From Actinomycetes bacterium (GTDB taxonomy: Bacteria > Actinomycetota > Thermoleophilia > Gaiellales > Gaiellaceae), in contig JAPOVR010000030.1 in NCBI GenBank assembly GCA_026708005.1, forward strand, positions 6,933 through 70,932: a stretch of DNA of 64,000 bases, written 5' to 3'. The notes under the pieces were generated by a model. That model was not told where the DNA came from. It did no database searches and saw nothing but the letters and a program-made list of their open reading frames with translations. Made by a program: the position numbers and the translations under genes. Positions within the stretch are counted from its first letter, which is position 1. Each line of letters opens with the position of its first letter. Positions 5,480 through 57,275 of the stretch are shown piece after piece.

Positions 5480-5630
5480 CACACAGTCGGCACGAACGCG
5501 CGACGGCCCGCGCGCCCCGCGCGCAGCGTTCGGTGCTAGACGCGATAGCGGGTGGTGGCTCGGGGTGGCCCCGAGGCGCACGGGTAAGGGCACGTCCATT
5601 TTGGGCAGGTGCGACGGGCGAGCCACCGGC
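5480..5630 (+). repeat. dispersed intergenic repeat, copy A (variant module GATAGCGGGTGG..GGGG-TGG-CCCC)
   Basis: 5544-5572 is 27/29 identical to 47177-47205, and 5545-5572 is 23/28 identical to 57182-57209. Hairpin CTCGGGG-TGG-CCCCGAG at 5559-5575. Lies in the 322-nt argB-argD spacer. Confidence 0.6.
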
Positions 5631-5747
5631 TGCCGGCCATCCGGCGACGCTCCGCCCGCCTGAAGCGGGGCTGAGACGGCCCGACACCGATCAGTATTCA
5701 TCGGCCGCACCGACGCGAGCTGCGGGCAGCCACGGGAACGGAGAGAC

Positions 5748-6887
5748 ATGAGCAACGCCGCGCAGGCACCGGTCATCCCCAACTACGCGCGCTTCGACGT
5801 GACGTTTGAGAGCGGCGATGGCGCGTGGCTGTACGCGGAAGACGGAAAGGAGTACCTGGACTTCGGCGCCGGCATCGCCGTGATCACGCTCGGCCACTGC
5901 CATCCGCAGGTCGTGGCGGCCGCACATGCCCAGCTCGACACGCTGTGGCACACGTCCAACCTTTACTGGACGAACCCGATGGCAGAGCTCGCCAGGGCCC
6001 TTTCGGCTCGCTTCGGCGGCGCGCAGACCTACTTCTGCAACTCCGGCGCTGAGAGCATTGAGGCGGGCCTCAAGTACGCGCGCAAGGCAACCGGCAAGCC
6101 GGGTATCGTGGCGCTCGAGAACTCGTTTCACGGGCGCACCTTCGGCGCTCTCTCGGTGACGGGCCAGCCCGCCAAGCACATGGGGTTCACACCGCTCGTG
6201 CCCGACGTGCGCTTCGCGAAGCAGAACGACGCTGAATCGCTCGCCGCGGCAGCCGCCGACGGCAAAGTCGGCTGCATCCTGATCGAGCCCATCCAGGGTG
6301 AGGGAGGCGTCAACCCGACGACACCCGAGTTCCTTGCATCGGCCGCAGAGCTTGCCCGCAGTGAAGGCGCTCTCCTGTTCTTCGATGAGGTGCAGTCCGG
6401 GACGGGCAGAACCGGGACGTTCTTCGCCTACGAGCAGCTCGGCACACAACCCGATCTCACCGCGCTCGCCAAGGGGCTCGCGAACGGCTTGCCGATCGGG
6501 GCGCTGCTCGTGAGCGACACAGCAGCACGCGGCTTCGAGCCCGGCGACCACGCAACGACGTTCGGCGGCAACCCCGTGTCGTGCGCCGCCGCCCTGGCCG
6601 TCGAGGCCGCTCTCACCAGCGAGCTGCTCGCGCACGTCCAGATGGTGGGAGCACACCTCGCCGAGGGACTCCGCCAGATCCCTGGTATCCGCGACGTGCG
6701 CGGCCGCGGGCTGATGCTCGGCGCCGAGCTCGACCAGCCGGCGCTCGACATCATCGGGGCCTGTGTCGAGCGGGGGCTGCTGCTCACATCGGCAGGCACG
6801 AACGTGCTGCGCTTCACGCCGCCGCTCGTCATCGAGGCGGCACACGTCGACCGCGCCCTTACCATCGTGCATGAGGTGCTGACATGA
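5748..6887 (+). CDS. argD: acetylornithine aminotransferase (class III PLP)
   Basis: MSNAAQAPVIPNYARFDVTFESGDGAWLYAEDGKEYLDFGAGIAVITLGHCHP..., FFDEVQSGTGRTG motif, arg operon context. Confidence 0.9.
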   Translation: MSNAAQAPVIPNYARFDVTFESGDGAWLYAEDGKEYLDFGAGIAVITLGHCHPQVVAAAHAQLDTLWHTSNLYWTNPMAELARALSARFGGAQTYFCNSGAESIEAGLKYARKATGKPGIVALENSFHGRTFGALSVTGQPAKHMGFTPLVPDVRFAKQNDAESLAAAAADGKVGCILIEPIQGEGGVNPTTPEFLASAAELARSEGALLFFDEVQSGTGRTGTFFAYEQLGTQPDLTALAKGLANGLPIGALLVSDTAARGFEPGDHATTFGGNPVSCAAALAVEAALTSELLAHVQMVGAHLAEGLRQIPGIRDVRGRGLMLGAELDQPALDIIGACVERGLLLTSAGTNVLRFTPPLVIEAAHVDRALTIVHEVLT

Positions 6888-7381
6888 GCCGGGCCGAGCG
6901 CCAGGGTACCATCCTCCGCCTGATCCGCGAGCAGGACATCGCGACGCAGAACGAGCTTGCACAGGCGCTCCGCGCTGCCGGCCACGATGTCGTCCAGACG
7001 ACGGTCTCCCGCGACGTGGCCGACCTCGGGCTCGTGAAGATCCGCGGCGAGAACAGCCTCGCGTACGCACACCCCGACACACCCGTGCAGCCGCGCAGCC
7101 AGATGCGCGACCTCCGCCTGGCGCTGCGGCGCTGGGCGCTCTCGATCGAGTCGAGCGCCAACCTCGTCGTCATCACGACGCCGAACGGCTTTGCCGACCC
7201 GCTCGCCCAGTCCATCGACGATGCCAATCACCCCCGCATCCTCGGCACAATCGCCGGCGAGAACACCATCCTCGTGATCGCCGCGGAACATTTCCCCGGC
7301 TCGGTGCTTCGCGACGAGCTCCGGAGCCACGTCGCAGGCGAGACCAGTCGAGGCTCGCCGGCACACACCGAAAGGAGCTGA
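6884..7381 (+). CDS. argR: arginine repressor
   Basis: MSRAERQGTILRLIREQDIATQNELAQALRAAGHDVVQTTVSRDVADLGLVK is a winged-helix ArgR N-domain, with a C-terminal oligomerisation domain (GTIAGENTILV). Start overlaps the argD stop. Confidence 0.9.
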   Translation: MSRAERQGTILRLIREQDIATQNELAQALRAAGHDVVQTTVSRDVADLGLVKIRGENSLAYAHPDTPVQPRSQMRDLRLALRRWALSIESSANLVVITTPNGFADPLAQSIDDANHPRILGTIAGENTILVIAAEHFPGSVLRDELRSHVAGETSRGSPAHTERS

Positions 7382-7388
7382 CCGACCG

Positions 7389-8612
7389 ATGCCCCGCACC
7401 GCCGTCCTCGCCTACTCGGGCGGACTCGACACGACCTGCGCGATCGCGTGGCTGCGCGAGGACTACGGCTTCGACGATGTCATCGCCGTCCTCGTCAATG
7501 TCGGCCAAGTGTTCGACGTCGAAGAGGCCATGGCCCGCGGAGACGCCGCCGGAGCAGCTGACGTGGTTCTGCTCGACCGCAAGGAGGCGTTCGCAAGCGA
7601 TCAGGTCGCGAAGGCGATCACGACCAACGCGCTCTACGAAGGGAAATACCCCCTCGTATCGGCCCTCTCACGGCCGGTCATCGCGGAGGCCGTCGCCTCG
7701 CTCGCCGAGGAGCTGGGAGCCGAGGCCGTCGTCCACGGCTGCACCGGCAAGGGCAACGACCAGCTGCGCTTCGAGCTCGCGTTCAAGGCCAGGTACCCCG
7801 GCGTGACGGTCATCGCCCCGCTGCGCGACCGCATCTGGACGCGCGAGGAGGAGGTCGCGTACGCGCTCGCGCGCGAGATCCCGGTCACGGCAACCGAGGA
7901 CTCGCCCTTCTCGATCGATGAGAATCTGCTCGGACGCTCGATCGAGGCCGGCGTGCTCGAAGATCCCTGGGCCCCACCGCCGGCGGAGCCCTACGCGCTC
8001 ACGGCCGCCCCAGATACGGCCCCGGTCCCGGTCGAGGTGGTCGTTGGCTTCGAAGCCGGGCTCCCGATTTCGCTCGATGGCCGCAACCTCAGCCTGGTCG
8101 ATCTCATCCATGAGCTGAACACCGCGGCGGGCGCGTACGGGATCGGCCGGATCGACATGATCGAGAACCGTGCGGTCGGTATCAAGAGCCGCGAGGTCTA
8201 CGAGGCTCCAGCCGCCATTGTCCTGATCGAGGCTCACCGTGCCCTCGAGGATCTCGTGCTCACCAAGGACGAGCTGCGCCTGAAGCGCGGGCTCGAGCAG
8301 CGCTGGACGGAGCTCGTCTACGACGGCCTCTGGTTCAGCCCTGCCCGCGAGGCAATCGACGCGTTCGTCGCCGCAACGCAACGGCCGGTTGCGGGAGACG
8401 TTCGCATCCAGCTCCGCCCCGCAGCCGCGATCGTGAACGGGCGCAGCTCGCCGAACGCCCTCTACGCCGAGACGCTCGCCTCGTACGCGGCAGGGGAGAC
8501 GTTCCCACATGACGCGGCGGAGGGTTTCATCCGCATCGCGGCCCTCGAGACAGAGCTCGCAGCGGCGCGCGAGCGGAGCGGGAGCGGCGAGGCCGCGCAG
8601 ACCGAGGCCTAA
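7389..8612 (+). CDS. argG: argininosuccinate synthase
   Basis: AYSGGLDTT ATP-binding motif, full-length 407 aa. Confidence 0.95.
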   Translation: MPRTAVLAYSGGLDTTCAIAWLREDYGFDDVIAVLVNVGQVFDVEEAMARGDAAGAADVVLLDRKEAFASDQVAKAITTNALYEGKYPLVSALSRPVIAEAVASLAEELGAEAVVHGCTGKGNDQLRFELAFKARYPGVTVIAPLRDRIWTREEEVAYALAREIPVTATEDSPFSIDENLLGRSIEAGVLEDPWAPPPAEPYALTAAPDTAPVPVEVVVGFEAGLPISLDGRNLSLVDLIHELNTAAGAYGIGRIDMIENRAVGIKSREVYEAPAAIVLIEAHRALEDLVLTKDELRLKRGLEQRWTELVYDGLWFSPAREAIDAFVAATQRPVAGDVRIQLRPAAAIVNGRSSPNALYAETLASYAAGETFPHDAAEGFIRIAALETELAAARERSGSGEAAQTEA

Positions 8613-8629
8613 GCGGCACCGGACTCACG

Positions 8630-9904: not shown

Positions 9905-10051
9905 CCTCAGCAGCGTGTTGCGGCGGCTCGCAGTCGTGCCTGTCCTGGGCGGTCTCGGCCACCGTATTCGAGTCTTGCGGCCACATCCAGGCTCCATGCG
10001 CGTGCTGAGCGGCCACCGAGATCAACCAGACGTCCGCCCGACTATCCTCCG

Positions 10052-11272: not shown

Positions 11273-11774
11273 AGTAGAGCCCAGGGCTGTCTGAGGCCAG
11301 CCGCTGTTTGGCTTGGGGTGCTCCAGCCGCTGCTGCTGGACCTCACGGCGAGGTAGCTCACGGCGAGGTGTTTCTCGCGGGCGGTTTTGGTGGACCCTGC
11401 TTGGGTCGCTCCGGCCGCAGCTGCCGGAGCTCATGGCGAGAGCGCGCAGCCGCAGAGAGTTGCCGCCGGAATCGCCGTAGGCCGAGCCGACCGGCAAGCG
11501 CTTGGCGGCACTCGCTGCGAGCGTGGCTGCCCTCTGCATGTACGAAGCGACGGGCGAGCGCTTGGCGGCGCCTCTGGGTGACGAGGCGAACGCGCGAATG
11601 CTTGGCAGCGCCTATTGGGCACGCTGCGGGTGGCCAGGTTGGCCAACGCCGTAGCGAGCCGCCTTGCCAGGGAGTCACCACAGTGCGCAGGTAAAGGGGC
11701 GAAGCCACCGGGCCGCCGGGCCGGATCGCCGGGCCGAGCTGCCCCGCCAGCCCGGCACAAAGGGCAACCCGCCT

Positions 11775-11900
11775 CCGCCCACCACCCGGGGGGTGGGTAG
11801 CCGAGATATGCGCACAGATTATTCGCGGGGGTGCTCGCGGTGCGGAAACCTGTATGGACACGGGAAATCTTGTTTCAGGGATGCCCCTGTTTCGCCGGGA
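11775..11900 (+). repeat. dispersed intergenic repeat, copy H
   Basis: CCCACC-ACCCGGGG-GGTGGG hairpin (11778-11797) followed by GTAGCCGAGATATGCGCAC. This aligns with GGGAGGGTAGCCGAGGAACGCGAAC of the reverse complement of 35336-35436. Confidence 0.5.
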
Positions 11901-12189: not shown

Positions 12190-12423
12190 GCGATGGAGCG
12201 GGCCGGGATCCCCTGGGCCGGCCCCACCGGCCAGCCCCGCACGTTCCACAGCTTCCGCCACACATTCGCCAAACGGGCCCTCGGAACAGGCCGCCCGATC
12301 ACCTGGCTCTCTAAACACCTCGGCCACTCGACCCTCAAAGTCACAACAGACGTCTACGGCCACTGGGAACACGCCGAACGCAAACACCAAGCAGAACAAA
12401 TGACCGGCCTCTTCGGCGTCTAA
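12190..12423 (+). pseudogene. tyrosine recombinase (phage-type integrase) C-terminal remnant
   Basis: ...RTFHSFRHTFAKRALGTGRPITWLSKHLGHSTLKVTTDVYGHW... carries the HxxR, GH and catalytic Y boxes only. No N-terminal or core-binding domain appears in any frame upstream. Flanked on both sides by repeat islands. Confidence 0.6.
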
Positions 12424-12504
12424 ACCCCCCACACCCACAGCCGCCTCTGCCCTCCGCCCCACACCGTCCCTGCGCTCCACCCAACGACACACCACCTCCA
12501 GCCT

Positions 12505-12770
12505 CTGAATGCCACCTTTGCGCATGCCGTGGGAGTGCGGGCAGCCGAGGGCGGGGGGCCTGCGTAGGCCGCTGTTCGCAACCCTTGCGCGGCGAGAAAG
12601 CGTCAATCCTGTCTGGGAGGCCGACTGCTTGCAGCCCTGCTCCACCCTTGCGCCTGCCGGCGCTCCCGGACTGTGCCCGACGGAGAGTCCGTTTGCACCC
12701 CGAATGCCACCCTTGCGCCCCATCCCGGCGTCCGATTCCTCCGCGCGGGCCGCGTCCCTCGATCGCCCAG
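12505..12770 (+). repeat. periodic ~65-nt array marked by CCACC(C/T)TTGCGC
   Basis: Motif at 12512-12523, 12578-12590 (GCAACCCTTGCGC), 12642-12653 and 12707-12718, with spacing 67/63/65 nt. Units 1 and 4 share GAATGCCACCyTTGCGC. The sequence between motifs is diverged. Confidence 0.55.
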
Positions 12771-12936
12771 CCTCACCGACTCCCGCACCCCGCCAGGGTC
12801 GCCTGCCGCGCCAGAAGCCAAGGCAGCCCAGGCCCCGCAGAGACGCGGACCGAACCCTTGCGGCCTACTCGACCCGTCCCCGGTCGCGCCAGGCCCCACG
12901 GAGACGTGATCGAACAGCCTTGCTGGACATCTTCAG

Positions 12937-15186: not shown

Positions 15187-15242
15187 GACTACGCCGCGAA
15201 CGGCGACACCCGCGGGTGCGACAGCCGAGCTCGAACGACCGA

Positions 15243-16740: not shown

Positions 16741-16964
16741 TCGCGCAGACGCCGCAAGCCCGACGCGGGGTGCCAGCCGCGGGCGGGTGAGGAGACCGTC
16801 GGCCTCGGTTCCGCAGGCCGGCGTCCGCCGGCCACGGGCGAAGCGCCGCCCAGGCGCGGTCTCGCAGGTCGCGGGCGAAGGGTCGCACGGTCGCCATCTT
16901 GCAGCTCGGGGACGCGCAGGCCGCAGGTGCGCAGGACTCGGCCGGCAAGACTCGGCTGCGCAGA

Positions 16965-17040
16965 GCCCCCCACCAGAGCCCGGGAGGCTACCAGGCGGAA
17001 CGTGAGCAATTCGTGCCGGTTCTGTCACGATTCCCACGCC
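16965..17040 (+). repeat. dispersed intergenic repeat, copy B
   Basis: 16979-17033 is 45/55 identical (ungapped) to 31677-31731. Contains the imperfect inverted repeat ATTCGTGCCGGTTCTGTCACGATTC (17009-17033). Confidence 0.65.
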
Positions 17041-17098: not shown

Positions 17099-17358
17099 TC
17101 GCCGCAGATCAGCCCCGCCGGCGACGAGCCCCATTGCCGCCTCCCCTCGCCGGAGATCAGCCCCCGGCGACGAGCCTCGCCGGCCAGTTCCTGCCGCCCG
17201 ACGCTTCGCTGGGCCGATCCCCGCCGGCCCACCCCCGCCGCCCCCGCTTCCTGCCGCTCCACATCTCGCTGCCCACTCCCGCCGTGATCGCCCCGCCAGC
17301 TTGGTCCCTGCCGCCCGGTTCCCGCCGCGGTCGCCCCGCCGGCTTGGTCCCTGCCGCC
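17099..17358 (+). repeat. degenerate ~43-49 nt tandem repeats
   Basis: TCGCCGCAGATCAGCCCCGCCGGCGACGAGCC (17099-17130) versus TCGCCGGAGATCAGCCCCCGGCGACGAGCC (17148-17177). TCGCCCCGCCAGCTTGGTCCCTGCCGCC (17288-17315) versus 17331-17358 (27/28 identical). Confidence 0.6.
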
Positions 17359-17953
17359 TCACCCTTGCCGCAGTGACCAAAGACAGCGGTCTCCCGACCG
17401 CCCTGAGCACCTCCAGCCGCTTGGATGGGTGCTCAAACGACTCGCTGAGACACCGGAAAGGGCCCGCACTGGTAGCCGAACCCCGTCGCGCACGGCACCG
17501 AGCGCAGGCGCGCGCCCACGGCCTAGGTCGCCGCCAAGCCGGGCGCAGGCGTCCAATCAGACAACGATCCGCGATCGGCGGCTGGCGTCGGCGACCATGC
17601 CAAGCGGGAGCACGCCTCCCCCGATCGGCAGGCACGCCGTCTGGCAGCGCGCGCATCTTCGCTGCGCCTGATGGAGGAGTTCGCGCTCGGCCGGCTCTGG
17701 AACCAGTGGCGCAGGGCGCACACCATCGCTACGCCCATGAAGCCTCGCGCGCTGAGCGTGACCCAAGTGCCGTTCGACGGAGCCGACCTTCGTTGCACCC
17801 ATGGAGCCTCGCGCGCGCCACCCCCGCCTTTCCCGCGGCGGGAGGAGACAGTTTGCTGCGCCTGATGGAGCCTGGCGCGCGTCCGATGTCAGCAGAGCGG
17901 CGAGATGGGCCGCTGGACACCGAGGCCGTCCCGGCCCATGGCACAGTGCATTG

Positions 17954-18798: not shown

Positions 18799-21486
18799 AT
18801 GTTCCCCCTGTCCAGTGATATGCTGACGGAGGGCGCAGTCAACGATCTCGTTCTGTGCTCAACCTGTCACGGCTCGCGGCGCTGGCGCGCTGCTTTCATG
18901 CAAGACGCTCGCTCTCATGCTGTTGTCGGCTCGGACGTAACGAGCCTGGTTGAGTCCGCACACCGCGCGGAGGACTGGGCGGGCGAGCCGTTCCTGAGGA
19001 ACGACGATCTGCCCGAGGAGGTGCTGGCCGCCGGCAAGGCGCGGCGCCAGGCCCTTGATGCGGCTCTGGCTGAGATCGAGGCTGGACGCCGCAGTCCATC
19101 CGCCGACTGGAAAGTCAAGTACGCGCTGATGCTCGGCTTGGAGCGGGTCCTGGGCAGCTCGCCGCCGAAGCTGGCATCAGGCACCGAGCTGCGGCGGCAC
19201 CAGGTCGACGCGCTCGCAGGCATGCTCACCGAGCTCATCGCCCGCCACGAGACGCCCTCGGAAAGCCCCAACGGTGACGCCGGCGAGCTCGTCGTCGTCG
19301 ATGTCGATGAGGACGAGTCGGTCATCGACGAGATCGACGAGGAGCCAGCGCTCGCAGACCCTGGAGCCGAGCGCCGCTACCGGTTCCGTCACCCGACAGC
19401 ATCCGGCAAAACGATCGCCGCGGCCGGGTTCGTCGAGGCGGCGCGCACGATGGGAGTCCTGATCCTGACGCACCGCCGGCTGCTGGTCAGCCAGTTCAAC
19501 CGCGACCTCACGACCGAGGGCTACGGCGAGCGATTCGCCAGCGCGATCACCGGCGGGCACGACCCGCCTGCGGCGAATCCGATCACGATCCAGACGTACG
19601 CGTGGTTCGCGCGACACGTCGACTCGCTCAGCCGCTCTGCCTACCAGCTCGTCATCTGCGACGAGGCCCACACGGCGCTGGGCGAGAAGACGAGCGCGGC
19701 GATCCGGCGACTGACGGAGCCGATCTACATCGGCATGACGGCCACCGAGCAGCTGATTGCCAAGCAGGTCTCCGACGTCTTCCCGGCCTCGGTGGATGAC
19801 CTGCCGCTCGGCGATGCCGCCCGGCGTGGCCTGATCGCACCGCTCAGGAGCCTTCGAGTGCCGCCCGCCGCGGCGGTGTCCTCAGTCCCGATCGTCGGGG
19901 GAGACTACGACCCGGACGCCTTGGCGAAGGTCCTCGACCACGAGCTGATCAACCAGGCCGCTGCGAGCCTCTATCGCGACCGATTCGGCGACACGCCAGG
20001 CATCGTCTACGCGGCCGGCGTCGAGCACGCTTACAACCTCGGCCGCGAGTTCCGTGCAGCCGGGCTCAAGGCCGAGGCGGTCAGCGGCCGCACGCCGCCA
20101 GTCAAGCTCGCCGAGACGCTCGCGGCCTACGAGCGAGGCGAGATCAACGTGCTCATCAACGCCCAGCTGCTCGCCGAGGGTTGGAACTCGCCGAGGGCGA
20201 CGGTGTGCATGCACCTCGCTCCAACGGCCAGCAAGCGCGTCTACCAGCAGCGAATCGGGCGCATCATGCGAACGCATCCCCGGAAGGAGGCCGGGATCGT
20301 CGTCGACTTCGTCGACCCAGCGGCGACGCACAACGAGCGCACCGTGACGATCCACAGCCTGCTCGATAGCGACTTCTACCGGCGCGGTGCGCGAGTCACC
20401 CCAGCGCCACGTCGACGCATTCAGCGCCGCGTGCGGCGCAGGCTGTCACCGGCGTCGTGGCTCGTGCCCGTCACACCCGACCCGACCCGGCGCCTCGCGG
20501 TGATCGCGCGCGAATGGCAGCGCACCAACCCGAGCAAGCTCGCCGACGACGAGCAGAAGGTCTGGGCACGCCTCGCCGGCCGCCAGGTGCGTATCGAGGA
20601 ACGGCAGGCGTTTGCCGAGAAGCTTGCGAAGGCGAGCAAGCAGTGCCGCGAGCTGTTCCTCATGGCATGCGCAGCCGAGAACCCCAACCGCCGGCTCAGG
20701 CTCGCCGCGCTGGGCGATCGCGTCTCCACCTCGGTGAGCCGCGCCGACTTCGACGATCTCGTCACGATCGTCTCCTCCTCACCGACCTGGGAGAACGACC
20801 GCATCCAAGGCCTTCGAATCCTGCTGCGAGCGATCGGCGAGGGGAAGGTCGACGTCTCTGAAGACATCCTCGCGCGGTGGACGTGGCGCCTCGCGAAAGC
20901 AAGTCGCAAGATCCAGGATCGCCAGGCGAGCGCGGAGTTCCCGGAGGCAAAGCGGCTGCTGGGGACGCTCGCGAACTCCCGGCGCCATCGGCATGAGGAG
21001 AACGCGGGGCGGCTGGTGAACGTCGCGCTGGAGCAGCCAATTGTGGTTGCCGCCGCGCTACTTGCATCCGCCGAGGGCTACACGCCAACGGCGCAGCAGC
21101 TCATCGAGCGCGCGCGCGAGCGCATCGGGACGATCCACGAGGTCGCGAACGCCCTCGCCGACAATCTGCCCCAGCCGAAGTCGAGCTCCGAGAAGCGCCG
21201 GCGGCGCAAGAAGCGCAAGAAGGAGAAGAGCGCAGCGGCAGCCGATACTGCCAGCGGGCGGAAAGGCGCTGGCGATCAGGTTCAGCCGGGCTCAGACGCG
21301 CCGGCGGAGATGCAGGGCGAGGTCGAGCCAGACGGGAAGCCCGGCTCACCTCAGCAGAGCAGTCAGCGGCAGCACGAGCAGCAACCCACGCCGGCTGAGC
21401 ACAATGGCGTGCTGGCCGACGCCGACGAGGCTGCCGCACAGGTTACGACCGCGGTGGGCTCGGCTCCGGCCGACCGCCAAGCCTAG
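18799..21486 (+). CDS. SF2 DEAD/DEAH-box helicase (ResIII-like core) with long C-terminal extension and K/R-rich tail
   Basis: Motif I PTASGKT, motif II ICDEAH, GMTAT, and a helicase-C region (QQRIGRIMR). About 380 aa of unassigned C-terminal region ends in SSEKRRRRKKRKKEKS. Start uncertain (18691, 18799, 18820 or later). Confidence 0.8.
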   Translation: MFPLSSDMLTEGAVNDLVLCSTCHGSRRWRAAFMQDARSHAVVGSDVTSLVESAHRAEDWAGEPFLRNDDLPEEVLAAGKARRQALDAALAEIEAGRRSPSADWKVKYALMLGLERVLGSSPPKLASGTELRRHQVDALAGMLTELIARHETPSESPNGDAGELVVVDVDEDESVIDEIDEEPALADPGAERRYRFRHPTASGKTIAAAGFVEAARTMGVLILTHRRLLVSQFNRDLTTEGYGERFASAITGGHDPPAANPITIQTYAWFARHVDSLSRSAYQLVICDEAHTALGEKTSAAIRRLTEPIYIGMTATEQLIAKQVSDVFPASVDDLPLGDAARRGLIAPLRSLRVPPAAAVSSVPIVGGDYDPDALAKVLDHELINQAAASLYRDRFGDTPGIVYAAGVEHAYNLGREFRAAGLKAEAVSGRTPPVKLAETLAAYERGEINVLINAQLLAEGWNSPRATVCMHLAPTASKRVYQQRIGRIMRTHPRKEAGIVVDFVDPAATHNERTVTIHSLLDSDFYRRGARVTPAPRRRIQRRVRRRLSPASWLVPVTPDPTRRLAVIAREWQRTNPSKLADDEQKVWARLAGRQVRIEERQAFAEKLAKASKQCRELFLMACAAENPNRRLRLAALGDRVSTSVSRADFDDLVTIVSSSPTWENDRIQGLRILLRAIGEGKVDVSEDILARWTWRLAKASRKIQDRQASAEFPEAKRLLGTLANSRRHRHEENAGRLVNVALEQPIVVAAALLASAEGYTPTAQQLIERARERIGTIHEVANALADNLPQPKSSSEKRRRRKKRKKEKSAAAADTASGRKGAGDQVQPGSDAPAEMQGEVEPDGKPGSPQQSSQRQHEQQPTPAEHNGVLADADEAAAQVTTAVGSAPADRQA

Positions 21487-22448: not shown

Positions 22449-22464
22449 CTCGATTCGCAGGTGC

Positions 22465-25924: not shown

Positions 25925-26063
25925 CCGGTGCAGAGCAGGGTTGGCGCAGGGCTGGCTCAGAGCGAGCCGGCACAGAGTGGGCACAGTTTCGTGACGCTTT
26001 TGTCACACATGGTGCGAAAGGCGTGCGCCTTTCTGGGCTACCCTCCCCCGGGGGTGGGGAGGG
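25925..26063 (-). repeat. dispersed intergenic repeat, copy F
   Basis: 25990-26051 is 52/62 identical (ungapped) to 35358-35419. Hairpins GAAAGGC-GTGC-GCCTTTC and CCCTCCCC-CGGGGGT-GGGGAGGG (26041-26063). Orientation is opposite to copies B/C/H. Confidence 0.7.
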
Positions 26064-26345
26064 GTTCCTCATATGCGGCTCCTGAGCGTCGAGCGGCCTT
26101 CTCAGCGGCTCGGGCGGTATGCGACGGCCGGGCGTCGAGCGGCCTGTCGCAGGAGCTTGGCGACAGGCGGCCGCTGGAACGGCGAGCAGCCTGTCTTAGT
26201 GGCTTGGCAGCCTCGCGTGGGGCAGCGCCGACGCCCGAGTGACAGGCCGCAACACTGGTCGACGACCGCCCGCAAGCCGGCCCCGCACCCTCCCCAGGCC
26301 GCCAGCCCCCGTCAGCCGCCCAACCTTGGCGGCAGCCACAACTGC

Positions 26346-26393
26346 CACACCAAACCACCCCCGCCGGGCCCACACCAAACCACCCCCGCCGGG
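26346..26393 (+). repeat. 2 x 23-nt perfect tandem repeat CACACCAAACCACCCCCGCCGGG
   Basis: Copies at 26346-26368 and 26371-26393, separated by CC. Confidence 0.8.
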
Positions 26394-26674
26394 CTGAGCG
26401 ACCACGCCGAAGGTTCCCCGCCTAGGCGAGCCGCGCGACGATCATCACCGCAGCGGCCAGCCAGGCGGCCCCGAGCAGGAGCAGGAGCGGCGCGAGAGGG
26501 CGCAGAGATGGGCGTGACTCGGGCTTTCCTGGCATGGCGGGAGCACTGTCTTCGGCGCGGACGGCGCCGCTCCTTCTCGAAATTCACGAGTCAGTGAGAA
26601 CAGCCCGTTCTGGCAGCGCGTCGGCATCAGCAGTCGGGCCTCCGGAGCGGTCGGTGAACTACGCTTCAGACCGC

Positions 26675-31403: not shown

Positions 31404-31644
31404 GCGACGTCGGCTGCACGCAGCGAGCAGTCTGCGTCAAGCCCACGCCCTGCCTCGCACGCAGACCCGTACAGAGACCCAGCTCTGCGCCGCCAGCGCA
31501 GCACGGCCGACCCGGCGCGACCAGCTCGGGCGCGCGCCAGCTTGGCATGCCCAGTTCGCCGGGCCCAGCTCCGCGTGGCCAGCTCGGCTAAGCCAAGGCG
31601 GCCAGCTGGGACCCGCGCGGGCGGCCGGACGCGCGCGCGAAAGC

Positions 31645-31735
31645 CCACCTCCAATCCCACCTCCCACCAACCCTGACCCGGGAGGGTACCAGCAGGGGTG
31701 TGACCCATTCGTGCCGATTCTGTCGCGATTCATCC
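31645..31735 (+). repeat. dispersed intergenic repeat, copy C
   Basis: 31677-31731 is 45/55 identical to 16979-17033. Hairpin CCTCCC...GGGAGG (31660-31685). Followed by GCCCAGCGTTG-type short repeats at 31741-31810. Confidence 0.65.
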
Positions 31736-35335: not shown

Positions 35336-35436
35336 CCGTGCAGAGTTGGCGCAGTTCCGTGACGCTTCTGCAACACCCGGTGGGAAAGGCGTTCGCGTTC
35401 CTCGGCTACCCTCCCCCGGATGGTAGGTGGGAGGGC
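35336..35436 (-). repeat. dispersed intergenic repeat, copy G
   Basis: See copy F (52/62 identity). Hairpin CCCTCCC-13 nt-GGGAGGG at 35409-35435. Confidence 0.7.
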
Positions 35437-35475
35437 GGGCTGTCCTTGGCAGCGGCCCGGCGAGGAGCGGGCCGT

Positions 35476-35660
35476 CTCAGCGTGACCCGGCGAGCGAACC
35501 CGACACGCCCGGAGCAGGCACGCGGCTGGCCGGCTGACGAGCAGGCGCACGACTGGCCGGGCACAAGCGGACACAGGACTGGCTGGGCACGTGCGGACGC
35601 ACGACTGGCTGGTTCATCGCTCAGCGTGACCCGGCGAACGAACCCGACATGTCCAGAGCA
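35476..35660 (+). repeat. 41-nt direct repeats flanking 3 x ~24-nt GCACGACTGGCyGG tandem units
   Basis: CTCAGCGTGACCCGGCGAGCGAACCCGACACGCCCGGAGCA (35476-35516) versus 35620-35660 (37/41 identical). Between them are three GCACGACTGGCC/GACTGGCTGG units. Confidence 0.7.
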
Positions 35661-41255: not shown

Positions 41256-41443
41256 GAGTCGGTTTATACCGAGCGCCCATTCAGGAGCGGTTGTGCAGGC
41301 ATTGAGCTCGGTTAGGCCCGCGTTGAGCGCCGGTTAAGCGCACGGGGAGCCTGGGTGGGTGGAACACCCCCCTGCGGCACCGCGAGCGCTCCCGGTGGGA
41401 AAGCGCGCCAAGCCTGCCGCGGACAAGACGACGAGCGGTATCG

Positions 41444-47104: not shown

Positions 47105-47214
47105 CTCATTCGGCACGTTCTCGCGACAATCATGACACGATCGCCGCGCCACGCGTCCCACCCTCGCCGCTACGCTGATAGCGGGTGGAGGCACGGGGTG
47201 GCCCCTTTGGTGCC
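47105..47214 (+). repeat. dispersed intergenic repeat, copy D
   Basis: ATTCGGCACGTTCTCGCGACAATC (47108-47131) resembles the module-2 inverted repeat. 47177-47205 is 27/29 identical to 5544-5572. Hairpin GGCAC-GGGG-TGG-CCCC-TTTG-GTGCC (47190-47214). Followed (47250-47400) by degenerate GGGCAGCCCrGCGAG / GCCCGACAACCAC short tandem units. Confidence 0.6.
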
Positions 47215-47423
47215 TGTTCCATTCAGGCATGTCCCCAGACATCCACGTTTGGGGCGGCGAGCTGCGGGGCAGCCCGGCGAGCCGCGGGACGGCCCAGCAA
47301 GGCGCGGGGCAGCCCAGCGAGACGCAGGGTGGCCTGGCCCAGACGCAGGCGGCCCGACAACCACGCGGGCAGCCCGACAACCACAGGCTCCGCGCCGGCC
47401 AGCCGCGCCGTCACGCGGCTGTC

Positions 47424-50472: not shown

Positions 50473-50762
50473 AGTGCTGGGCCGGCGCTGCACGGTTGTC
50501 CGAACGCCAAGCCCCCAGGTAGGAGCCGCGCAGCTCGGAGGGGACGTCACCCGCGTGGATGTGGACGCCGGCGGTACGGAGCGGGCATGGAGTCGCAGGG
50601 CCTCGGCGCAGCACGCAGCCTCGTGGGTCGATCTGGGTGCTTTCGGCCGCCCCACGGCGGATAGCGGCAGCAGGCAGCCGGAGTGCATGCAGCCATGGCG
50701 GTGCGATCCACGGTGTGCGCTCTGTGCCTGGCGAAGTCACCTGATCGCCGTGCCGGACCGCC

Positions 50763-50885
50763 CACCGCCGAGCGGCCCTCAAGGGAAACCCTCGACCGCC
50801 GAGCAGCCCTGAAGGGCAGCCGCCTGCCGCCGAGCGGCCCTCAAGGACGGGCCGGCCCCACCCACCACCCCCCCGGGGGGAGCAC
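50763..50885 (+). repeat. 3 x ~31-nt tandem repeat plus partial copy of the dispersed-repeat hairpin seed, inside the urease operon
   Basis: CCGCCGAGCrGCCCTsAAGG occurs at 50766-, 50797- and 50828-. It is followed by CCCACCACCCCCCCCGGGGGG (50861-50880), similar to 11778-11797. Confidence 0.6.
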
Positions 50886-50952
50886 GGCGCGGCGCAGCAC
50901 GACGAAGCGGCGCGGCGCAGACCGGCCTCATCGCCTGCCAGCAGCCCGTAAC

Positions 50953-52307: not shown

Positions 52308-52918
52308 CGCGCAGCGCCGTCGAAGAGCACCGCGTGGTTCACGTGAGCCAGGACCTCCCCGGCGTCCCCGGCGCGCAGGTCGGTGAAGACCGTCGGCCGG
52401 TCAGGCCGCACCACCTCGAGATCCCAGCGCATGCGCTCGAGATCGGCGCCGACATACGGCGCGAGGTCGATCTTGTTCACGACGAGCAGATCGGCCTGGA
52501 TGATGCCCAGACCCCGCTTGCGAGGGATGTCGTCACCCGCGGCGACATCGATGATGTAGAGCCAGTGATCGACCAACTCGGCGCTGAACGTCGAGGCGAG
52601 GTTATCGCCGCCAGACTCGATCAATACGAGGTCGAGGTCGTGCGTGCGCTCGAGGCGCTCGGCAACGTCCAGGTTCATCGAGGGATCCTCACGGATTGCG
52701 GTGTGCGGGCATGCACCGGTCTCGACGCCGGCGACGAGCGACGGATCGATCAACCCTCCGCGCTTCACGCGCTCGGCATCCTCGGTCGTGACGAGGTCGT
52801 TGGTAATCACGGCGACGCGCCGACCCTGCTCGTGCAGAAGCGGGAGCAGCCGCTCGATCAGCCGGGTCTTGCCCGACCCGACCGGCCCACCGATCCCCAC
52901 GCGAACGGCCGAGCTCAC
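52304..52918 (-). CDS. ureG: urease accessory GTPase UreG
   Basis: [21 protein letters not shown]-loop, [23 protein letters not shown] 52918 overlaps the ureC stop. Confidence 0.9.
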
Positions 52919-54630: not shown

Positions 54631-55325
54631 CAGCCCTCACCCCCTGCCCCGCGGAACCCTGCCGCGGCTGCGCGAGCGAGCGCCTCGTCAAGACGGTCGG
54701 CTGACGTCCTCCCTTCCGTCAGCTGGTTCAGCCCATGCACGCTGCGGTCGCCACCAAAGGCGACGAGCTGGACCTCTCGCTCCTCGCCCGGCTCGAACCG
54801 CACCGCCGTTCCGGCCGGGATATCGAGGCGCATGCCGAACGCCTCCGAGCGGTCGAACGCCAGCTCGGGGTTCACCTCGAAGAAGTGGTAGTGCGAGCCG
54901 ACCTGGACTGGGCGGTCGCCGACGTTCGCAACCATGACAGCCGCGCTCTCGCGCCCCTCGTTGAGAATCACGTCGCCATCGGCCAGCTCGTACCCGCCCG
55001 GCTCGACCTCATCGGCACCCCCGCGCGGGATGGGGTCGTGCACGGTGACGAGCTTCTGCCCATCGGGAAACATGGCCTCGACTTGGAGCGTCCCCATTAG
55101 CTGCGGCACGCCCCGCATGACGTCGTCAGCCGTCAAGAGCGTGGCACCAAAGCCCATTAGCTCGGCGACGCTGCGGCCGTCGCGCGCGCCTTCGCAGATC
55201 TCATCGGCTATCAGGGCGCGCGCCTCTGGATAGTTCAGCTTGAGGCCTCGGGCTCGTCGTCTCCGGGCTAACTCGGCGGCCAAGAAGAGGAGGAGGCGGT
55301 CGGCCTCCTTGGGGCTCAGATGCAT
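54630..55325 (-). CDS. ureAB: fused urease gamma-beta subunit
   Basis: [35 protein letters not shown] (gamma) continues in frame into [17 protein letters not shown]...[10 protein letters not shown] (beta). GGAGG Shine-Dalgarno. Confidence 0.9.
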
Positions 55326-55739
55326 GTCGCGCCTCCTACGTTCGCGAGGATGCGGGCCATCGGCGGCTAGACGGTCGGTCGACGACTGGGTGCTGTTGAG
55401 CTATCGAGAACCATCGAGGCCGGATGCGTGTTCAGGCGATTGCGCATTATGGCCGCCCGAGCGACTCCCATGTCGCCGGGTCTCGATGCCGATCGGGAAG
55501 CACGGGCCGCCACCCTCGCCGGGCACGTCCTGAGCCCGCGCGGAGGCTCACCCCTAGCGGAGCAACCCGACCGCAGCCTCGGTGGCAGGCCCTCTACGGG
55601 CGGAGCCGCACTGATTACCCCGCGGCCTGAGCGCGAACGGCGCGGCGTGGCTGCAGGGGCCAGTTCAACCGGCGATCGTGGCGGTGCAGCACGAGCGGGG
55701 TCGGGATGCGCATCTTCCGCCCACCAGCGCAGCGATCCT

Positions 55740-56162
55740 CTACGGCTCGAGCGTGAACTCGATGTCTTGGGCTCCCTGCCACTGCACGAGCCGCCCGAGC
55801 TCGGCGAGCTGATCCCGTCCCTCCACGACTGTCAGGAAGTGGTTGCCCGCAAGCGGCCCAGCAACGCTGGCGAAGTAGGTTGCGCCGTAGGGAACCAGGA
55901 TCTCGACCTCGCTCACGCCCCCCGGATAGAAGAGCAGCTCGCCTGCTCCCGGAATCGTGGTCGCGTTCTCCGGGGGAAGCTTGACGTCGTCGCGGAAACC
56001 GAGCGGAACCCACGCAGCGAAGCCGCTCCAGCGCGCCTGCAGGACCTTGCTGCGGTAGGGCAGGAGCGAGCGGAACAGCGCGCACGTCGCCGGCGCTGCC
56101 TCCTTCTCGAGGCGACCCACAAAGCGAAGCGGCCCGGCGCTGATCGAGACTAAGTCGGACAC
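55740..56162 (-). CDS. small cyclophilin-fold-like protein (DUF3830-like), function unknown
   Basis: 140 aa. ...EAAPATCALFRSLLPYRSKVLQARWSGFAAW... resembles the AP-TC...LP...RWSG pattern I associate with DUF3830. Assignment from memory only. Confidence 0.45.
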   Translation of the reverse strand: MSDLVSISAGPLRFVGRLEKEAAPATCALFRSLLPYRSKVLQARWSGFAAWVPLGFRDDVKLPPENATTIPGAGELLFYPGGVSEVEILVPYGATYFASVAGPLAGNHFLTVVEGRDQLAELGRLVQWQGAQDIEFTLEP

Positions 56163-56193
56163 GGTTGACCTCCCCGGCAGTTGTCCTCGGCAG

Positions 56194-57030
56194 TCACTCG
56201 GCGTACTCGTAGAAGCCCCGCCCCGTCTTGCGGCCCAGCCAGCCTGCCTCCACGTACTGGCGCAGGAGCGGGCAGGGCCGGTACTTGGGGTCGCCGAGTC
56301 CCTCGTGCATGACCTCCATCACGGAGAGGCACGTGTCGAGACCGATCAGGTCGGCAAGCGAGAGGGGACCCAGCGGGTGGCGCATGCCGAGCTTCATCAC
56401 TTCGTCGATTGCCGCTGCGGTGCCGACGCCCTCCATGAGTGCAAAGACTGCCTCGTTGATCATCGGCATGAGGATGCGATTGCCGATGAAGCCGGGGAAG
56501 TCATTGGCCTCGACGGGCGTCTTGCCGAGCCGCTTGGCGAGCTTGATCGTCGCCTCCACGGTCGCGTCGCTCGTTCGCAGGCCGCGAATCACCTCGACGA
56601 GCGGGAGCATGGGCACCGGGTTCATGAAGTGCATCCCGATGAACAGCTCCGGCCGCCGCGTCGCCTGCGAGAGACGCGTGATCGGGATCGACGAGGTGTT
56701 CGTCGCGATGATCGCGCCCGAGGGGAGACGGTCGTCGAGCTCAGCGAGGACAGCGCGCTTGGCGGCTTCGTCCTCGGTCACAGCTTCGATGCCGCAGTCA
56801 GCGGCCCCATCGGGAACTGCCTGCGATGTCGTGATCTGCCCAAGCACGTCCTCGGCCGAGACACCACCCTTCTCGGCGAGCCTCGCCTGGCTCCTCTCGA
56901 TTGCGGCCAGGCCGCGGGCGAGCAGCTCCTCGCCGACATCGACCATTACCACCTCGAGCTCGGCCGCCGCGCACACCTGAGCGATGCCGCTGCCCATCTG
57001 GCCGGCCCCGACGACAACGACTCGATTCAT
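56194..57030 (-). CDS. hbd: 3-hydroxyacyl/3-hydroxybutyryl-CoA dehydrogenase
   Basis: MNRVVVVGAGQMGSGIAQV Rossmann motif plus a C-terminal 3HCDH domain. Start trimmed to ATG 57030. Confidence 0.85.
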   Translation of the reverse strand: MNRVVVVGAGQMGSGIAQVCAAAELEVVMVDVGEELLARGLAAIERSQARLAEKGGVSAEDVLGQITTSQAVPDGAADCGIEAVTEDEAAKRAVLAELDDRLPSGAIIATNTSSIPITRLSQATRRPELFIGMHFMNPVPMLPLVEVIRGLRTSDATVEATIKLAKRLGKTPVEANDFPGFIGNRILMPMINEAVFALMEGVGTAAAIDEVMKLGMRHPLGPLSLADLIGLDTCLSVMEVMHEGLGDPKYRPCPLLRQYVEAGWLGRKTGRGFYEYAE

Positions 57031-57099
57031 GCCCCGCTCCCTCGTCCCGGCTGACACCGTCCGCTCCCCTCCTGACGCATCGTGAGCAAACCCTTGCGC

Positions 57100-57275
57100 A
57101 GGCTCCCTACGCCTGTAGCCAATTCGTTCCGCCCCGGTTGCAGACCCGTGCACGATTCGCTACTACCGTCGAACGTGGGTGGTGGTCCGGGGTGGCCCCA
57201 GCGCGGCCCGCGGCCCTGCCCCTTCCGGACGGGTCCGATTGGGACACGGCGGGTTGGCGAGCCGATCGCGGCCCC
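57100..57275 (+). repeat. dispersed intergenic repeat, copy E (both modules)
   Basis: AATTCGTTCC...GTGCACGATTCGC (57121-57160) resembles module 2. 57182-57209 is 23/28 identical to 5545-5572 (GGGTGGTGG..GGGG-TGG-CCCC). Preceded by the CAAACCCTTGCGC motif (57089-). Confidence 0.6.

Follow-up and report, generated by a model that had tools for sequence, protein, structure and literature searches.

Copies of a promoter-like cassette of ~90 bases recur in the intergenic gaps of an uncultured Gaiellales bacterium and its relatives

The DNA studied here comes from an uncultured soil actinobacterium of the order Gaiellales (class Thermoleophilia). Copies of a promoter-like cassette of ~90 bases lie in many intergenic gaps of this genome and of its relatives. 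The copies found in the window, meaning the whole stretch of 64,000 nucleotides that was analyzed, are given below with their parts and with two possibly related features.

5478..5575, plus strand: copy A (sub-type A/G/H), between argB and argD; found by profile, repeat, and core-motif searches; orthologs in the relatives L088 and L089
5478-5504, plus strand: copy A boxes TGCAC, GGCAC, and GCGAC
5537-5542, plus strand: copy A degenerate hexamer TAGACG (TAGGCT in relatives)
5550-5558, plus strand: copy A GGGTGGTGG
5559-5575, plus strand: copy A hairpin CTCGGGG-TGG-CCCCGAG
5428..5746, plus strand: 319-nt insert carrying copy A, from comparison with relatives
11768..11815, minus strand: copy B (sub-type D/F/B), truncated; found by inverted repeat, D/F profile (E = 5e-5), and GSTASCCWCCC box
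11799-11794, minus strand: copy B hexamer TACCCA
11787-11768, minus strand: copy B GGGTGGTGGGCGGAGGCGGG
16960..17033, minus strand: copy C (sub-type C/E); found by repeat search, self-BLAST, profile, and box patterns
17028-17002, minus strand: copy C boxes GTGAC, GGCAC, and CTCAC, followed by 11 nt
16990-16985, minus strand: copy C hexamer TAGCCT, followed by CCCGGG and GGTGGGGGG
25969..26064, plus strand: copy D (sub-type D/F/B); found by repeat search, self-BLAST (85 bits), and metagenome profile (E = 3e-4)
25969-26006, plus strand: four copy D boxes, GGCAC, GGCAC, GTGAC, and GTCAC, followed by 32 nt
26039-26044, plus strand: copy D hexamer TACCCT
26050-26064, plus strand: copy D GGGGGTGGGGAGGGG
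31632..31731, minus strand: copy E (sub-type C/E); found by repeat search, self-BLAST, box patterns, and its L214 ortholog
31726-31700, minus strand: copy E boxes GCGAC, GGCAC, and GTCAC, followed by 11 nt
31688-31683, minus strand: copy E hexamer TACCCT, followed by a G-rich tract with two GGAGGTGGG
35341..35442, plus strand: copy F (sub-type D/F/B); found by repeat search, self-BLAST, profile, and GSTASCCWCCC box
35359-35374, plus strand: copy F boxes, including GTGAC and GCAAC
35407-35412, plus strand: copy F hexamer TACCCT, followed by GGTAGGTGGGAGGGCGGG
41311..41337, minus strand: phased TTAAC, TCAAC, and CTAAC boxes upstream of htrA
47112..47205, plus strand: copy G (sub-type A/G/H); found by repeat search, box pattern, metagenome profile (E = 1e-13), and 23-nt core
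47112-47138, plus strand: copy G boxes GGCAC, GCGAC, and GACAC, followed by 32 nt
47171-47176, plus strand: copy G hexamer TACGCT
47183-47191, plus strand: copy G GGGTGGAGG
47195-47205, plus strand: copy G hairpin
50850..50885, minus strand: possible degenerate relative CCCCCCGGGGGGGTGGTGGGTGGGG in the ureE-ureF spacer
57115..57199, plus strand: copy H (sub-type A/G/H); found by repeat search, metagenome profile, and 23-nt core
57115-57152, read on the minus strand: four phased copy H boxes
57164-57169, plus strand: copy H hexamer TACCGT
57177-57185, plus strand: copy H GGGTGGTGG
57189-57199, plus strand: copy H hairpin

The insert carrying copy A is flanked by a direct duplication, CATGAGC (5421-5427 and 5747-5753), by which the argB stop and argD start both stay intact, and no coding potential was found in 5428..5746. 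Copy B retains only the downstream half, its upstream box region being replaced relative to the L088 ortholog, and adjoins an integrase fragment (12193-12423). Copy C is directed toward the 3' end of an M20 peptidase gene, copy D is flanked by acs (26534, plus strand) and by a divergent gene whose function is unknown (start 25809, minus strand), and copy E is convergent with nadE. Copy F lies within a 917-nt noncoding spacer on which M16 peptidase and FMN reductase genes converge. An oxoprolinase gene (start 47023, minus strand) is divergent from copy G and a racemase gene is convergent with it, and copy H is divergent from a 3-hydroxyacyl-CoA dehydrogenase gene. The original prediction had called such positions operon-internal, a description that suits some loci and not the others; its statement that no transposase is associated holds in the window, to which we add the integrase fragment beside copy B. 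The element at 50850..50885 has no recognizable hexamer and was matched by none of the profiles, and no coding potential was found in 50473-50952. At the position upstream of htrA, the relative L214 has a full A/G/H-type copy (19475-19575; E = 4e-15).

Read in one orientation, all eight loci have a common layout, in which phased GnnAC direct repeats are followed by a TAnnnT hexamer and then by a G-rich GGGTGGnGG tract. The repeats number two to four and are spaced 11 bp apart, one helical turn. The last box lies 11 nt from the hexamer in C, E, and the E ortholog in L214 and 32 nt from it in A, D, F, G, and the A ortholog in L089; 6-14 nt separate hexamer and tract, after which A, G, and H have a GGGG-TGG-CCCC hairpin. 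TAnnnT is matched by every window copy but A. The start region holds a Shine-Dalgarno-like GGAGG or GGTGG with GTG 6 nt later, and downstream of about +25 the sequence is not conserved between copies. No TTGACA-like -35 element was found, and a generic sigma-70 scanner was blank over 25.8-36 kb. This layout revises two modules proposed earlier: the recurring box of module 1, GGGTAGCC, is real and is better read as the reverse complement of the -10-type hexamer GGCTACCCT, and module 2, taken for an inverted repeat, is better described by GnnAC direct repeats, three in all, that recur every 11 bp.

The dispersed intergenic family, present in both orientations, is genuine. All of the sequences named in the original prediction were found where it had placed them, and its hand-counted identities (52/62, 45/55, and 27/29) were exact. 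An independent repeat search of the window gave 84% identity over 79 nt for D/F (25973-26051 versus 35341-35419), 76% over 68 nt for C/E (16966-17033 versus 31664-31731), a 29-nt family at 5544, 47177, and 57171 (93% and 83% identity), and an inverted partner of F (35391-35434) in B (11772-11815). When self-BLAST of the window was compared with 15 dinucleotide shuffles of the window, D/F (85 bits) and C/E (58 bits) exceeded every shuffle (best, 50.4), whereas A/G (45.7 bits) and B/F (41 bits), as single pairs, fell inside the shuffle range. The 23-nt core GGGTGGWGGNNNGGGGTGGCCCC occurs three times in the window against 0.00 expected, even allowing two mismatches, and the box GSTASCCWCCC, a pattern derived post hoc from the data, five times against 0.09. 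The three-box pattern GnnAC-n6-GnnAC-n6-nnnAC occurs eight times against 1.9 expected, with six of the eight matches in element loci, although just 16.5% of the window is intergenic. Sequence comparison links the sub-types only weakly, but the links are real by profile: a D/F profile detects B (E = 5e-5), and a profile from metagenome copies alone detects A, G, H, L026, L088, and L089 as well as D (E = 3e-4) and the L088 ortholog of B. D, F, and this ortholog share ~80% identity over about -75 to +8 and diverge beyond, which suggests that the promoter part alone was copied.

The cassette family is not private to this genome; orthologous sites in relatives retain copies, and other sites have gained them. 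Same-site copies occur in relatives at 83-96% protein identity, and empty sites occur in more distant ones. Copy A is kept in L088 and L089 (ArgD identity, 96% and 83%), and its site is empty in L210 and L212, where ArgD identity is ~70% and argB and argD overlap by 11 nt. In L214, an 86% relative, the ortholog of copy E (7933-8005) has unchanged layout and orientation, and D and F are missing, the F spacer there being only 59 nt. The L026 copy occupies a site where eight other loci have abutting genes. The inserted DNA varies in length (about 125, 228, 319, and 860 nt), with likeness confined to the ~80-90-nt promoter part. Related contigs totaling 682 kb held only 3 further copies beyond the anchoring copy, and the per-genome copy number therefore looks modest.

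Further copies, which the original prediction called for, proved to be many outside the window. The core motif is present in at least 120 soil-metagenome contigs, and no copy was found in 2.9 million viral contigs. The metagenome scan pattern was the +1..+23 motif only, so that conservation of +1..+23 among the matches is imposed by the search pattern; many matches are mutually orthologous and thus not independent. TAnnnT stands exactly 6-7 nt upstream in 110 of 115 distinct matches (TACGCT in 72). In an alignment of 105 sequences, the three middle bases of the hexamer vary; only its -10-type positions (T, A, and last T) are invariant or >90% conserved. Only ~20% of metagenome copies have full G..AC-n6-G..AC pairs at the modal position; therefore, the response-regulator part of the model given below may hold for a subset only. 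The neighbors are diverse housekeeping genes (103 clusters), and some sense genes (tgt, gatA, gdh, pyk, tpiA, and murJ) begin 6-70 nt downstream. Unexpectedly, some two thirds of the copies are directed toward the tail end of an adjacent gene.

Structured RNA, small gene, REP, and MITE were each considered as candidates and were unsupported by Rfam, covariation, folding energy, coding potential, and terminal inverted repeats. The Rfam search matched no family, RNAalifold gave no consensus structure, and the predicted transcripts had no excess folding stability over shuffles (z from -1.5 to +1.9); no tRNA, covariation, or coding potential was found in the element sequences. The copies have no common terminal inverted repeats and no full-length likeness, and no palindrome continues past the 4-bp GGGG/CCCC stem, the extension of which shows no covariation. 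Of the three identities offered originally, operator sites came closest, and neither REP/MITE nor structured RNA was supported.

Several known systems resemble the cassettes in part. Like REP, BIME, and REPIN elements with RAYT, they are short GC-rich hairpin repeats, intergenic only, in both orientations, and often right after stop codons; unlike them, they lack an extended imperfect palindrome, inverted pairs, or a known RAYT gene, and their conserved ~90 nt are mostly nonpalindromic and bear a -10 signature. Promoter-bearing MITEs, such as Neisseria Correia elements and ERIC, are likewise dispersed intergenic repeats able to supply promoters, with target duplication on insertion. Such MITEs are of fixed length, carry terminal inverted repeats, and resemble one another from end to end; the cassettes show none of these features. 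The 11-bp-spaced direct-repeat layout recalls OmpR/PhoB-family response regulators (GlnR and MtrA). Four GlnR protomers bind gTnAc-n6-GaAAC sites head-to-tail, around and downstream of the -35 element (PMC10235972). As in GlnR promoters, MtrA GTCACAgcg sites, and PhoP direct-repeat sites, the cassettes carry 5-nt direct repeats, three or four in number, that recur every 11 bp and in C, E, and the L214 ortholog of E reach ~11 nt upstream of TAnnnT without a good -35; in contrast, the boxes of A, D, F, and G lie 32 nt from the hexamer. GTGAC and GTCAC forms of the GlnR a-site are common, whereas the b-site GaAAC is rarely matched, the repeats reading GGCAC or GCGAC, and the adjacent genes form no coherent nitrogen regulon. 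The cassettes also resemble the putative mobile promoters, or promoter propagation, of Matus-Garcia, Nijveen, and van Passel (2012), as outlined in a commentary (PMC3575422), in which only -150 to -50 upstream of annotated genes was examined and the operational criterion was an identity of 80% or more across 50 nt or more. By that account, both are highly similar upstream sequences before unrelated genes of one genome, common to related taxa, with no tie to a known insertion sequence or Rfam family, and D/F (84% over 79 nt) falls within the 80% threshold. Unlike mobile promoters as outlined there, the cassettes do not, for the most part, precede a gene; in addition, the predicted -10 hexamer and transcript start belong to the copied unit, and conservation of the family spans an entire uncultured clade.

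A selfish nonautonomous mobile element of the MITE/REP/REPIN type, inserted in either orientation with promoter-like features incidental or carried along, could explain the sites gained relative to outgroups, the 7-nt duplication around the copy A insert, the filled and empty sites for F and the L026 copy, the filling of whole short spacers, the mutually unrelated neighbors, and the integrase fragment beside B. We consider it unlikely, given the want of shared terminal inverted repeats, the unequal insert lengths with similarity in the promoter part only, the absence of REPIN-type paired inverted copies in the window repeat search and of a transposase in the window, a hairpin stem without covariation, orientation independent of replication direction, the modest copy number, and T-12, A-11, and T-7 kept by selection while the flanks diverge. 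Distinctly unlikely, in our view, is a region that mainly binds a transcription factor, as the regulon of a response regulator resembling GlnR or MtrA, or of a palindrome-binding repressor, controlling adjacent, often divergent genes, with the hexamer and G-rich tract as a secondary divergent promoter. The 11-bp phasing, the gTnAc and GTCAC-type repeats recognized by GlnR and MtrA (PMC10235972; PMC2945938), and the nitrogen-related neighbors (arg genes, nadE, oxoprolinase, acs, and urease) speak for such a region. So do neighboring divergent genes, which begin 85-160 nt from the boxes of D, G, H, L026, and the L088 ortholog of B and, in 66 of 105 metagenome loci, a median of 76 nt upstream. 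However, conservation peaks in the hexamer and +1..+23 rather than in the boxes, GaAAC is mostly unmatched, the urease operon has no boxes upstream, no divergent gene is near C, E, or F, and the neighbors are of unrelated housekeeping functions.

The promoter signature followed by an invariant 23-nt start would also suit genes for short noncoding or antisense RNAs, with the 5' end GGGUGGnGG and hairpin as a common seed, protein-binding, or ribosome-binding tag. Most copies converge with a gene end, so that antisense RNA would result, the convergent arrangement of E is retained in the 86% relative, and the start region has its Shine-Dalgarno-like element and GTG. Such genes are nevertheless improbable: conservation ends at +25, neither a terminator signature nor a stable fold was found, the GTG is an inconsistent start codon (in frame in 7 gene families, out of frame in 8, and mixed in 3), and A and T are about equally frequent at position W of the motif, which argues against strict Shine-Dalgarno function. 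The least probable reading, to which we give very little weight, is punctuation of gene ends on the opposite strand, where a GC hairpin right after the stop codon and then C-rich CCWCCACCC would form a 3'-end, terminator, or mRNA-stabilizing signal. In 72 of 105 metagenome loci, the distance between hairpin and stop codon is -1 to 36 nt, with a median of 15 nt, and flanking genes both opposite to the element strand (-,-) outnumber (+,+) flanks by 51 to 22. Yet the hairpin is short (loop of 3 nt, stem of 4-7 bp) and lacks a U-tract, no gene ends at it in one third of the copies, 200-500 nt separate it from the convergent stop codon in the window, and the invariant hexamer T, A, and T 20 nt away and the conserved ~60 nt beyond are left unexplained.

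On balance, and with modest confidence, we lean toward reading the eight loci as three sub-types (A/G/H, D/F/B, and C/E) of a single lineage-specific, ~80-100-bp propagated sigma-70-type promoter cassette. TAnnnT would be the -10 hexamer, with the GnnAC repeats replacing a canonical -35 element; a response regulator bound to these repeats probably assists RNA polymerase with the housekeeping sigma factor, and transcription is predicted from the sequence to begin 6-7 nt 3' of the hexamer. GGGTGGnGG would then be a conserved G-rich start region, and the A, G, and H transcripts would continue with the GGGG-UGG-CCCC hairpin. Against this promoter reading, the convergent placement of some two thirds of the copies, with the stop codon a median of 15 nt past the hairpin, is atypical for an ordinary gene promoter, and the strict +1..+23 conservation exceeds what promoter function needs. 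At a minority of sites, transcription may read through into the next gene, for example from A into argD-argR-argG-argH, perhaps from D into acs, and from the L214 copy into htrA. At the majority, it would enter noncoding DNA or, in antisense, a convergent gene at its 3' end, and these antisense copies may serve a biological purpose. The promoter part alone would have been copied into new intergenic spacers, by promoter propagation, and then kept for long periods.

The dispersed intergenic repeat family of the original prediction proved to be real: all of its sequences were present at the predicted positions, and its three identity counts made by eye were exact on recount. A repeat search of the window (G+C content, 68-69%) recovered the copies designated D and F (79 nt, 84% identity) and C and E (68 nt, 76% identity), together with a triplet of copies A, G, and H and an inverted match between copies B and F. 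Control against dinucleotide shuffles bore out some of these identities and not others, as D/F (85 bits) and C/E (58 bits) scored above the best of 15 shuffles (50.4 bits) whereas A/G (45.7 bits) and B/F (41 bits), taken as single pairs, scored below it. The 23-nt core common to A, G, and H was observed three times in the window against an expectation of 0.00, an 11-nt box, GSTASCCWCCC, was observed five times against 0.09 (a pattern derived post hoc), and copy B was detected by a D/F profile (E=5e-5).

The interpretation originally placed on these sequences was right in part. The box GGGTAGCC of the first proposed module is present but is the reverse complement of a hexamer, GGCTACCC(T), and the second module, described as an imperfect inverted repeat, is instead GTGAC-n6-GGCAC-n6-CTCAC read from the opposite strand. 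Once the copies had been oriented (A, D, F, G, and H on the plus strand; B, C, and E on the minus strand), all shared one order of parts, namely, GnnAC repeats with an 11-bp period, a TAnnnT-type hexamer, and a G-rich tract. The window hexamers are TACCCT (three copies), TAGCCT, TACGCT, TACCGT, and TACCCA, with TAGACG in copy A; they lie 6 to 14 nt before the GGGTGGnGG-type tract, after which GGGG-TGG-CCCC follows in A, G, and H. Copies C, D, E, G, and H each carry three or four GnnAC boxes separated by n6, and the last box is separated from the hexamer by 11 nt in C, E, and related locus L214 and by 32 nt in A, D, F, G, and related locus L089. The three-box pattern was observed eight times in the window versus 1.9 expected, with six of the eight inside element loci.

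The direct repeats of this array lie at or shortly before the -35 position, as for GlnR and OmpR/PhoB-type sites. GTGAC and GTCAC, which are like the GlnR a-site, are frequent in the boxes, and the b-site position is mostly GGCAC or GCGAC; a full box pair stands at the modal position in only approximately 20% of metagenome copies. No TTGACA-like -35 element was found 16 to 18 nt upstream of the -10 position, where the consensus is CCCACG, and a generic sigma-70 promoter scanner detected no promoter between 25.8 and 36 kb. The missing -35 hexamer is consistent with an activator-dependent promoter.

Copies outside the window were found at orthologous sites, in L026 (a contig from a different genus), and in soil metagenome contigs. 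Metagenomes were scanned with the 23-nt core only, the hexamer being left out of the pattern, and the core was present in at least 120 contigs. TAnnnT lay exactly 6 to 7 nt upstream of the core in 110 of the 115 distinct matches listed, among which the hexamers TACGCT (72), TAGGCT (15), and TACGAT (10) occurred. In an alignment of 105 sequences, the T, the A, and the last T of the hexamer, at -12, -11, and -7, were invariant or at least 90% conserved and the middle three bases were variable. This pattern is, at the level of sequence, the signature of a sigma-70-family -10 element. The upstream consensus of the metagenome copies reads GnCAC-n6-GGCAC, then CCAC at about -32 and TTT at about -20. 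A profile built from metagenome copies only recovered A, G, H, and the copies in L026, L088, and L089 (the last two being relatives of the window) and also matched D (E=3e-4) and the L088 ortholog of B; in their promoter part the sub-types therefore belong to a single family. The sub-types D/F and C/E, of which there were none in 682 kb of related metagenome contigs, are restricted to the species or genus of the window. A phage origin was rejected, as the 23-nt core had no match in 2.9 million viral contigs.

The nearest species-level genomes are Gaiellaceae/Gaiellales metagenome-assembled genomes with NadE identities of only 65 to 72%, so that the host is an uncultured member of the Gaiellales (Thermoleophilia). 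The gene map combines Pfam matches with the gene calls of the contigs themselves and is given below, with "element" marking an element-bearing spacer.

Gene blocks and tandem repeats of the window
argCJB, element, argDRGH-lysA
cobW, M20 peptidase, helicase
acs-aminotransferase-nadE, element, aminotransferase-M16 peptidase, element, FMN reductase
ECF sigma factor, htrA, methylmalonyl-CoA mutase
oxoprolinase, element, racemase
urease genes
3-hydroxyacyl-CoA dehydrogenase, element, AMP ligase
11311-11628, 17272-17371, 26345-26394, 35548-35612, 47257-47384, and 50757-50846, degenerate tandem repeats

All window spacers longer than 300 nt contain an element, except 12424-12936 and 55326-55739. The spacers 3' of the cassettes are unusually long (0.3 to 1.2 kb), noncoding, and rich in degenerate tandem repeats with units of 20 to 44 nt, and one indel between the window and L088 (a 96% relative) is a 41-nt tandem-repeat unit. 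Between ureE and ureF, an open reading frame (ORF) of "178 aa" (50473-50952) has no coding potential and is uncalled in another assembly of the same species; this spacer holds 31-nt tandem repeats and a CCCCCCGGGGGGGTGGTGGGTGGGG tract resembling the cassette start region. Downstream of copy H, a 51-nt piece of DUF3830 coding sequence (56052-56102) is duplicated in the sense direction at 57323-57373 with 92% identity, and a weak full-length Rfam match to a CPEB3/HDV-like ribozyme that overlaps this duplication (24.3 bits versus a gathering score of 35; E=0.04) is probably spurious. Upstream of a sodium:solute symporter family gene is a TPP riboswitch (63647-63756; Rfam RF00059, 70 bits).

Comparison with relatives revealed retention, gain, and turnover of copies. 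Copy A was kept between argB and argD in L088 (ArgD identity, 96%) and L089 (83%), with the hexamer TAGGCT, a nearly unchanged hexamer-to-hairpin stretch, and diverged flanks. In L210 and L212 (approximately 70% identity), there is an 11-nt overlap between argB and argD (L210 1370-1380), and the window has here a 319-nt insert (5428-5746) between direct duplications of CATGAGC (5421-5427 and 5747-5753) that leave the argB stop and the argD start intact. By its sequence the duplication looks like a target-site duplication; it is 7 nt long, was seen at one locus, and is required in part regardless to preserve the argB stop and argD start, and none was seen at the copy F locus. The L088 ortholog of copy B has a complete, D/F-like upstream half, which the window copy has lost. 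A phage-integrase fragment (12193-12423; 76 aa, weak Pfam match) adjoins the latter, and because the gene order after lysA differs from that in L088, the region looks like a rearrangement breakpoint that deleted the upstream half.

Copy E was kept in L214 (an 86% relative), where it has four phased boxes, TACCCT after a gap of 11 nt, and the G-rich tract and is likewise convergent with nadE. Copies D and F are absent from L214, and the spacer between the M16 peptidase and FMN reductase genes is 59 nt there versus 917 nt in the window. L214 carries an extra full A/G/H-type cassette in the sense direction upstream of htrA (19475-19575), and the corresponding window site (41256-41443) has only three phased boxes, TTAAC/TCAAC/CTAAC; this difference shows cassette turnover between close relatives. 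L026 has an A/G/H-type copy between two genes that directly abut in eight other loci, and the cassette was absent near nadE in other Gaiellaceae genera except L026. In two different lineages, a cassette stands immediately upstream of a uracil-DNA glycosylase family gene and diverges from it (L088 7109-7354 and L026 12678-12790), the sub-types being different.

Genomic context was counted from our own gene calls on metagenome contigs, with the strands of the upstream and downstream genes given relative to the element; many loci are mutually orthologous, so that the counts are nonindependent. The classes were (-,-) at 51 loci, (+,+) at 22, (+,-) at 13, and (-,+) at 9, and about two-thirds of these partly orthologous copies therefore point at the 3' end of a gene. 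The spacers at these loci are short and are filled by the cassette: the median distance to the predicted transcript start is 66 nt from the end of a co-oriented upstream gene and 76 nt from the start of a divergent one, and beyond the hairpin a co-oriented downstream gene starts after approximately 35 to 40 nt and a convergent one ends after a median of 15 nt. The neighboring genes make up 103 protein clusters, whose housekeeping functions are unrelated (among them queA/tgt, gatA, gdh, purD/purB, pyk, tpiA, murJ, era, hemH, and guaA).

The best-supported reading is that the family is a lineage-specific promoter cassette. Such a promoter would be activator dependent, without a -35 element and with a housekeeping-type -10; the phased GnnAC repeats would be putative response-regulator-type sites, and the promoter part has been copied into further spacers and kept there. 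By analogy, the layout resembles that of the transcription activation complex of GlnR, whose four protomers are bound head-to-tail at gTnAc/GaAAC sites around -35 (PMC10235972); MtrA recognizes GTCAC-type repeats (PMC2945938). A duplicated and retained promoter part fits the concept of putative mobile promoters (PMC3575422), whose operational definition asks for an identity of 80% or more across 50 nt or more in front of nonhomologous genes. D/F agrees with this definition (84% over 79 nt, unrelated flanks), and C/E lies under the cutoff (76% over 68 nt). The concept is exceeded by the invariant +1 to +23 leader (in copies that were collected with the 23-nt core pattern) and by the fact that most copies aim at the end of a convergent gene.

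Because leader and convergent-end bias lie outside the mobile-promoter concept, four rivals were retained. Were the family a selfish mobile element, the REP/MITE kinds originally suggested would be the known models. The 20- to 40-nt imperfect palindrome of a REP/REPIN, with a stem maintained between copies, is lacking, and no closely spaced inverted pairs or transposase were found within the window. Nor do the loci have the common terminal inverted repeats of a MITE, and their likeness is limited to approximately 80 to 90 nt, with inserts of 125 to 860 nt. Chi- or KOPS-like elements oriented with replication and an IS200/IS605-type lagging-strand bias were rejected, since flank GC skew tracks gene strand and not element strand, element orientation being independent of replication. 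A further rival is an operator regulon controlling divergent genes; among regulatory sites considered, a CRP/FNR-type palindrome was rejected for its spacing and because the copies carry direct rather than inverted repeats, and a SigB/SigF-type GGGTA -10 in the originally proposed orientation was rejected for want of a GTTT -35, the opposite orientation matching TAnnnT. A G-quadruplex was discarded, four G3 runs being present only in E. Gene-end punctuation acting on the opposite strand is another rival.

The remaining rival is a noncoding or antisense RNA family. The earlier suggestion of small structured RNAs gained no support: there was no Rfam match at any copy, at the gathering threshold or at E≤1, no RNAalifold consensus structure, no covariation beyond that of shuffles, and no extra folding stability, since the eight predicted transcripts, folded over their initial 91 nt, had z-scores of -1.5 to +1.9, no better than shuffles. 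GGGG/CCCC is the only constant stem, and pairing at the three flanking positions (47% of cells) did not exceed that in shuffles. An upstream hairpin that seemed to covary convincingly by eye in a few sequences had 27% of its cells paired, which did not exceed the shuffles or slid controls. ARAGORN found no tRNA or tmRNA genes, and a tRNA-like fold of copy A (GGTGGCTCG...CGAGCCACC) was rejected on this result and on a closing stem unconserved in L088. Coding potential was assessed with a codon-usage model for which the Pfam-supported genes of the window were the training set (sensitivity of 98% with 9% false positives in 100-codon windows), and none was detected in the spacers of A, B, D, E, F, G, and H. 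Small protein genes downstream were dismissed, as the ORFs after the G-rich tract are unconserved between copies and without coding potential; indels between the window and L088 are not multiples of three. The hairpin GTG as a common start codon was likewise discarded, its apparent in-frame excess of 17/27 vanishing once loci were grouped into gene families, of which 7 had it in frame and 8 out of frame, with 3 mixed.

It is conceivable, if improbable, that the promoter cassette is a dedicated antisense-promoter system, in which dozens of housekeeping genes across a Gaiellales clade would each have a response-regulator-controlled promoter immediately after the stop codon. The invariant 5' leader of the cassette, in which a Shine-Dalgarno-like tract is accompanied by GUG and the hairpin, would then stabilize the antisense RNA or protect it against Rho, and one signal could damp or terminate many convergent genes together. 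Such a system, if true, would add an unusual level of control across the genome; if it is false, the family is still a useful clade marker and annotation feature.

The Gaiellales, like other Thermoleophilia, belong to the most abundant actinobacteria of soils and have barely been cultured, and we know of nothing on their promoters and regulation. Propagated promoters and intergenic repeat families are known kinds, and the host clade is unstudied. Why most copies, as predicted promoters, should fire toward gene 3' ends is a directly testable puzzle. With its -10 signature, phased activator-type repeats, and invariant predicted start conserved at more than 100 metagenomic sites, the putative promoter cassette provides a first handle on the transcription signals of this lineage and a clean natural case of promoter duplication without an insertion sequence.
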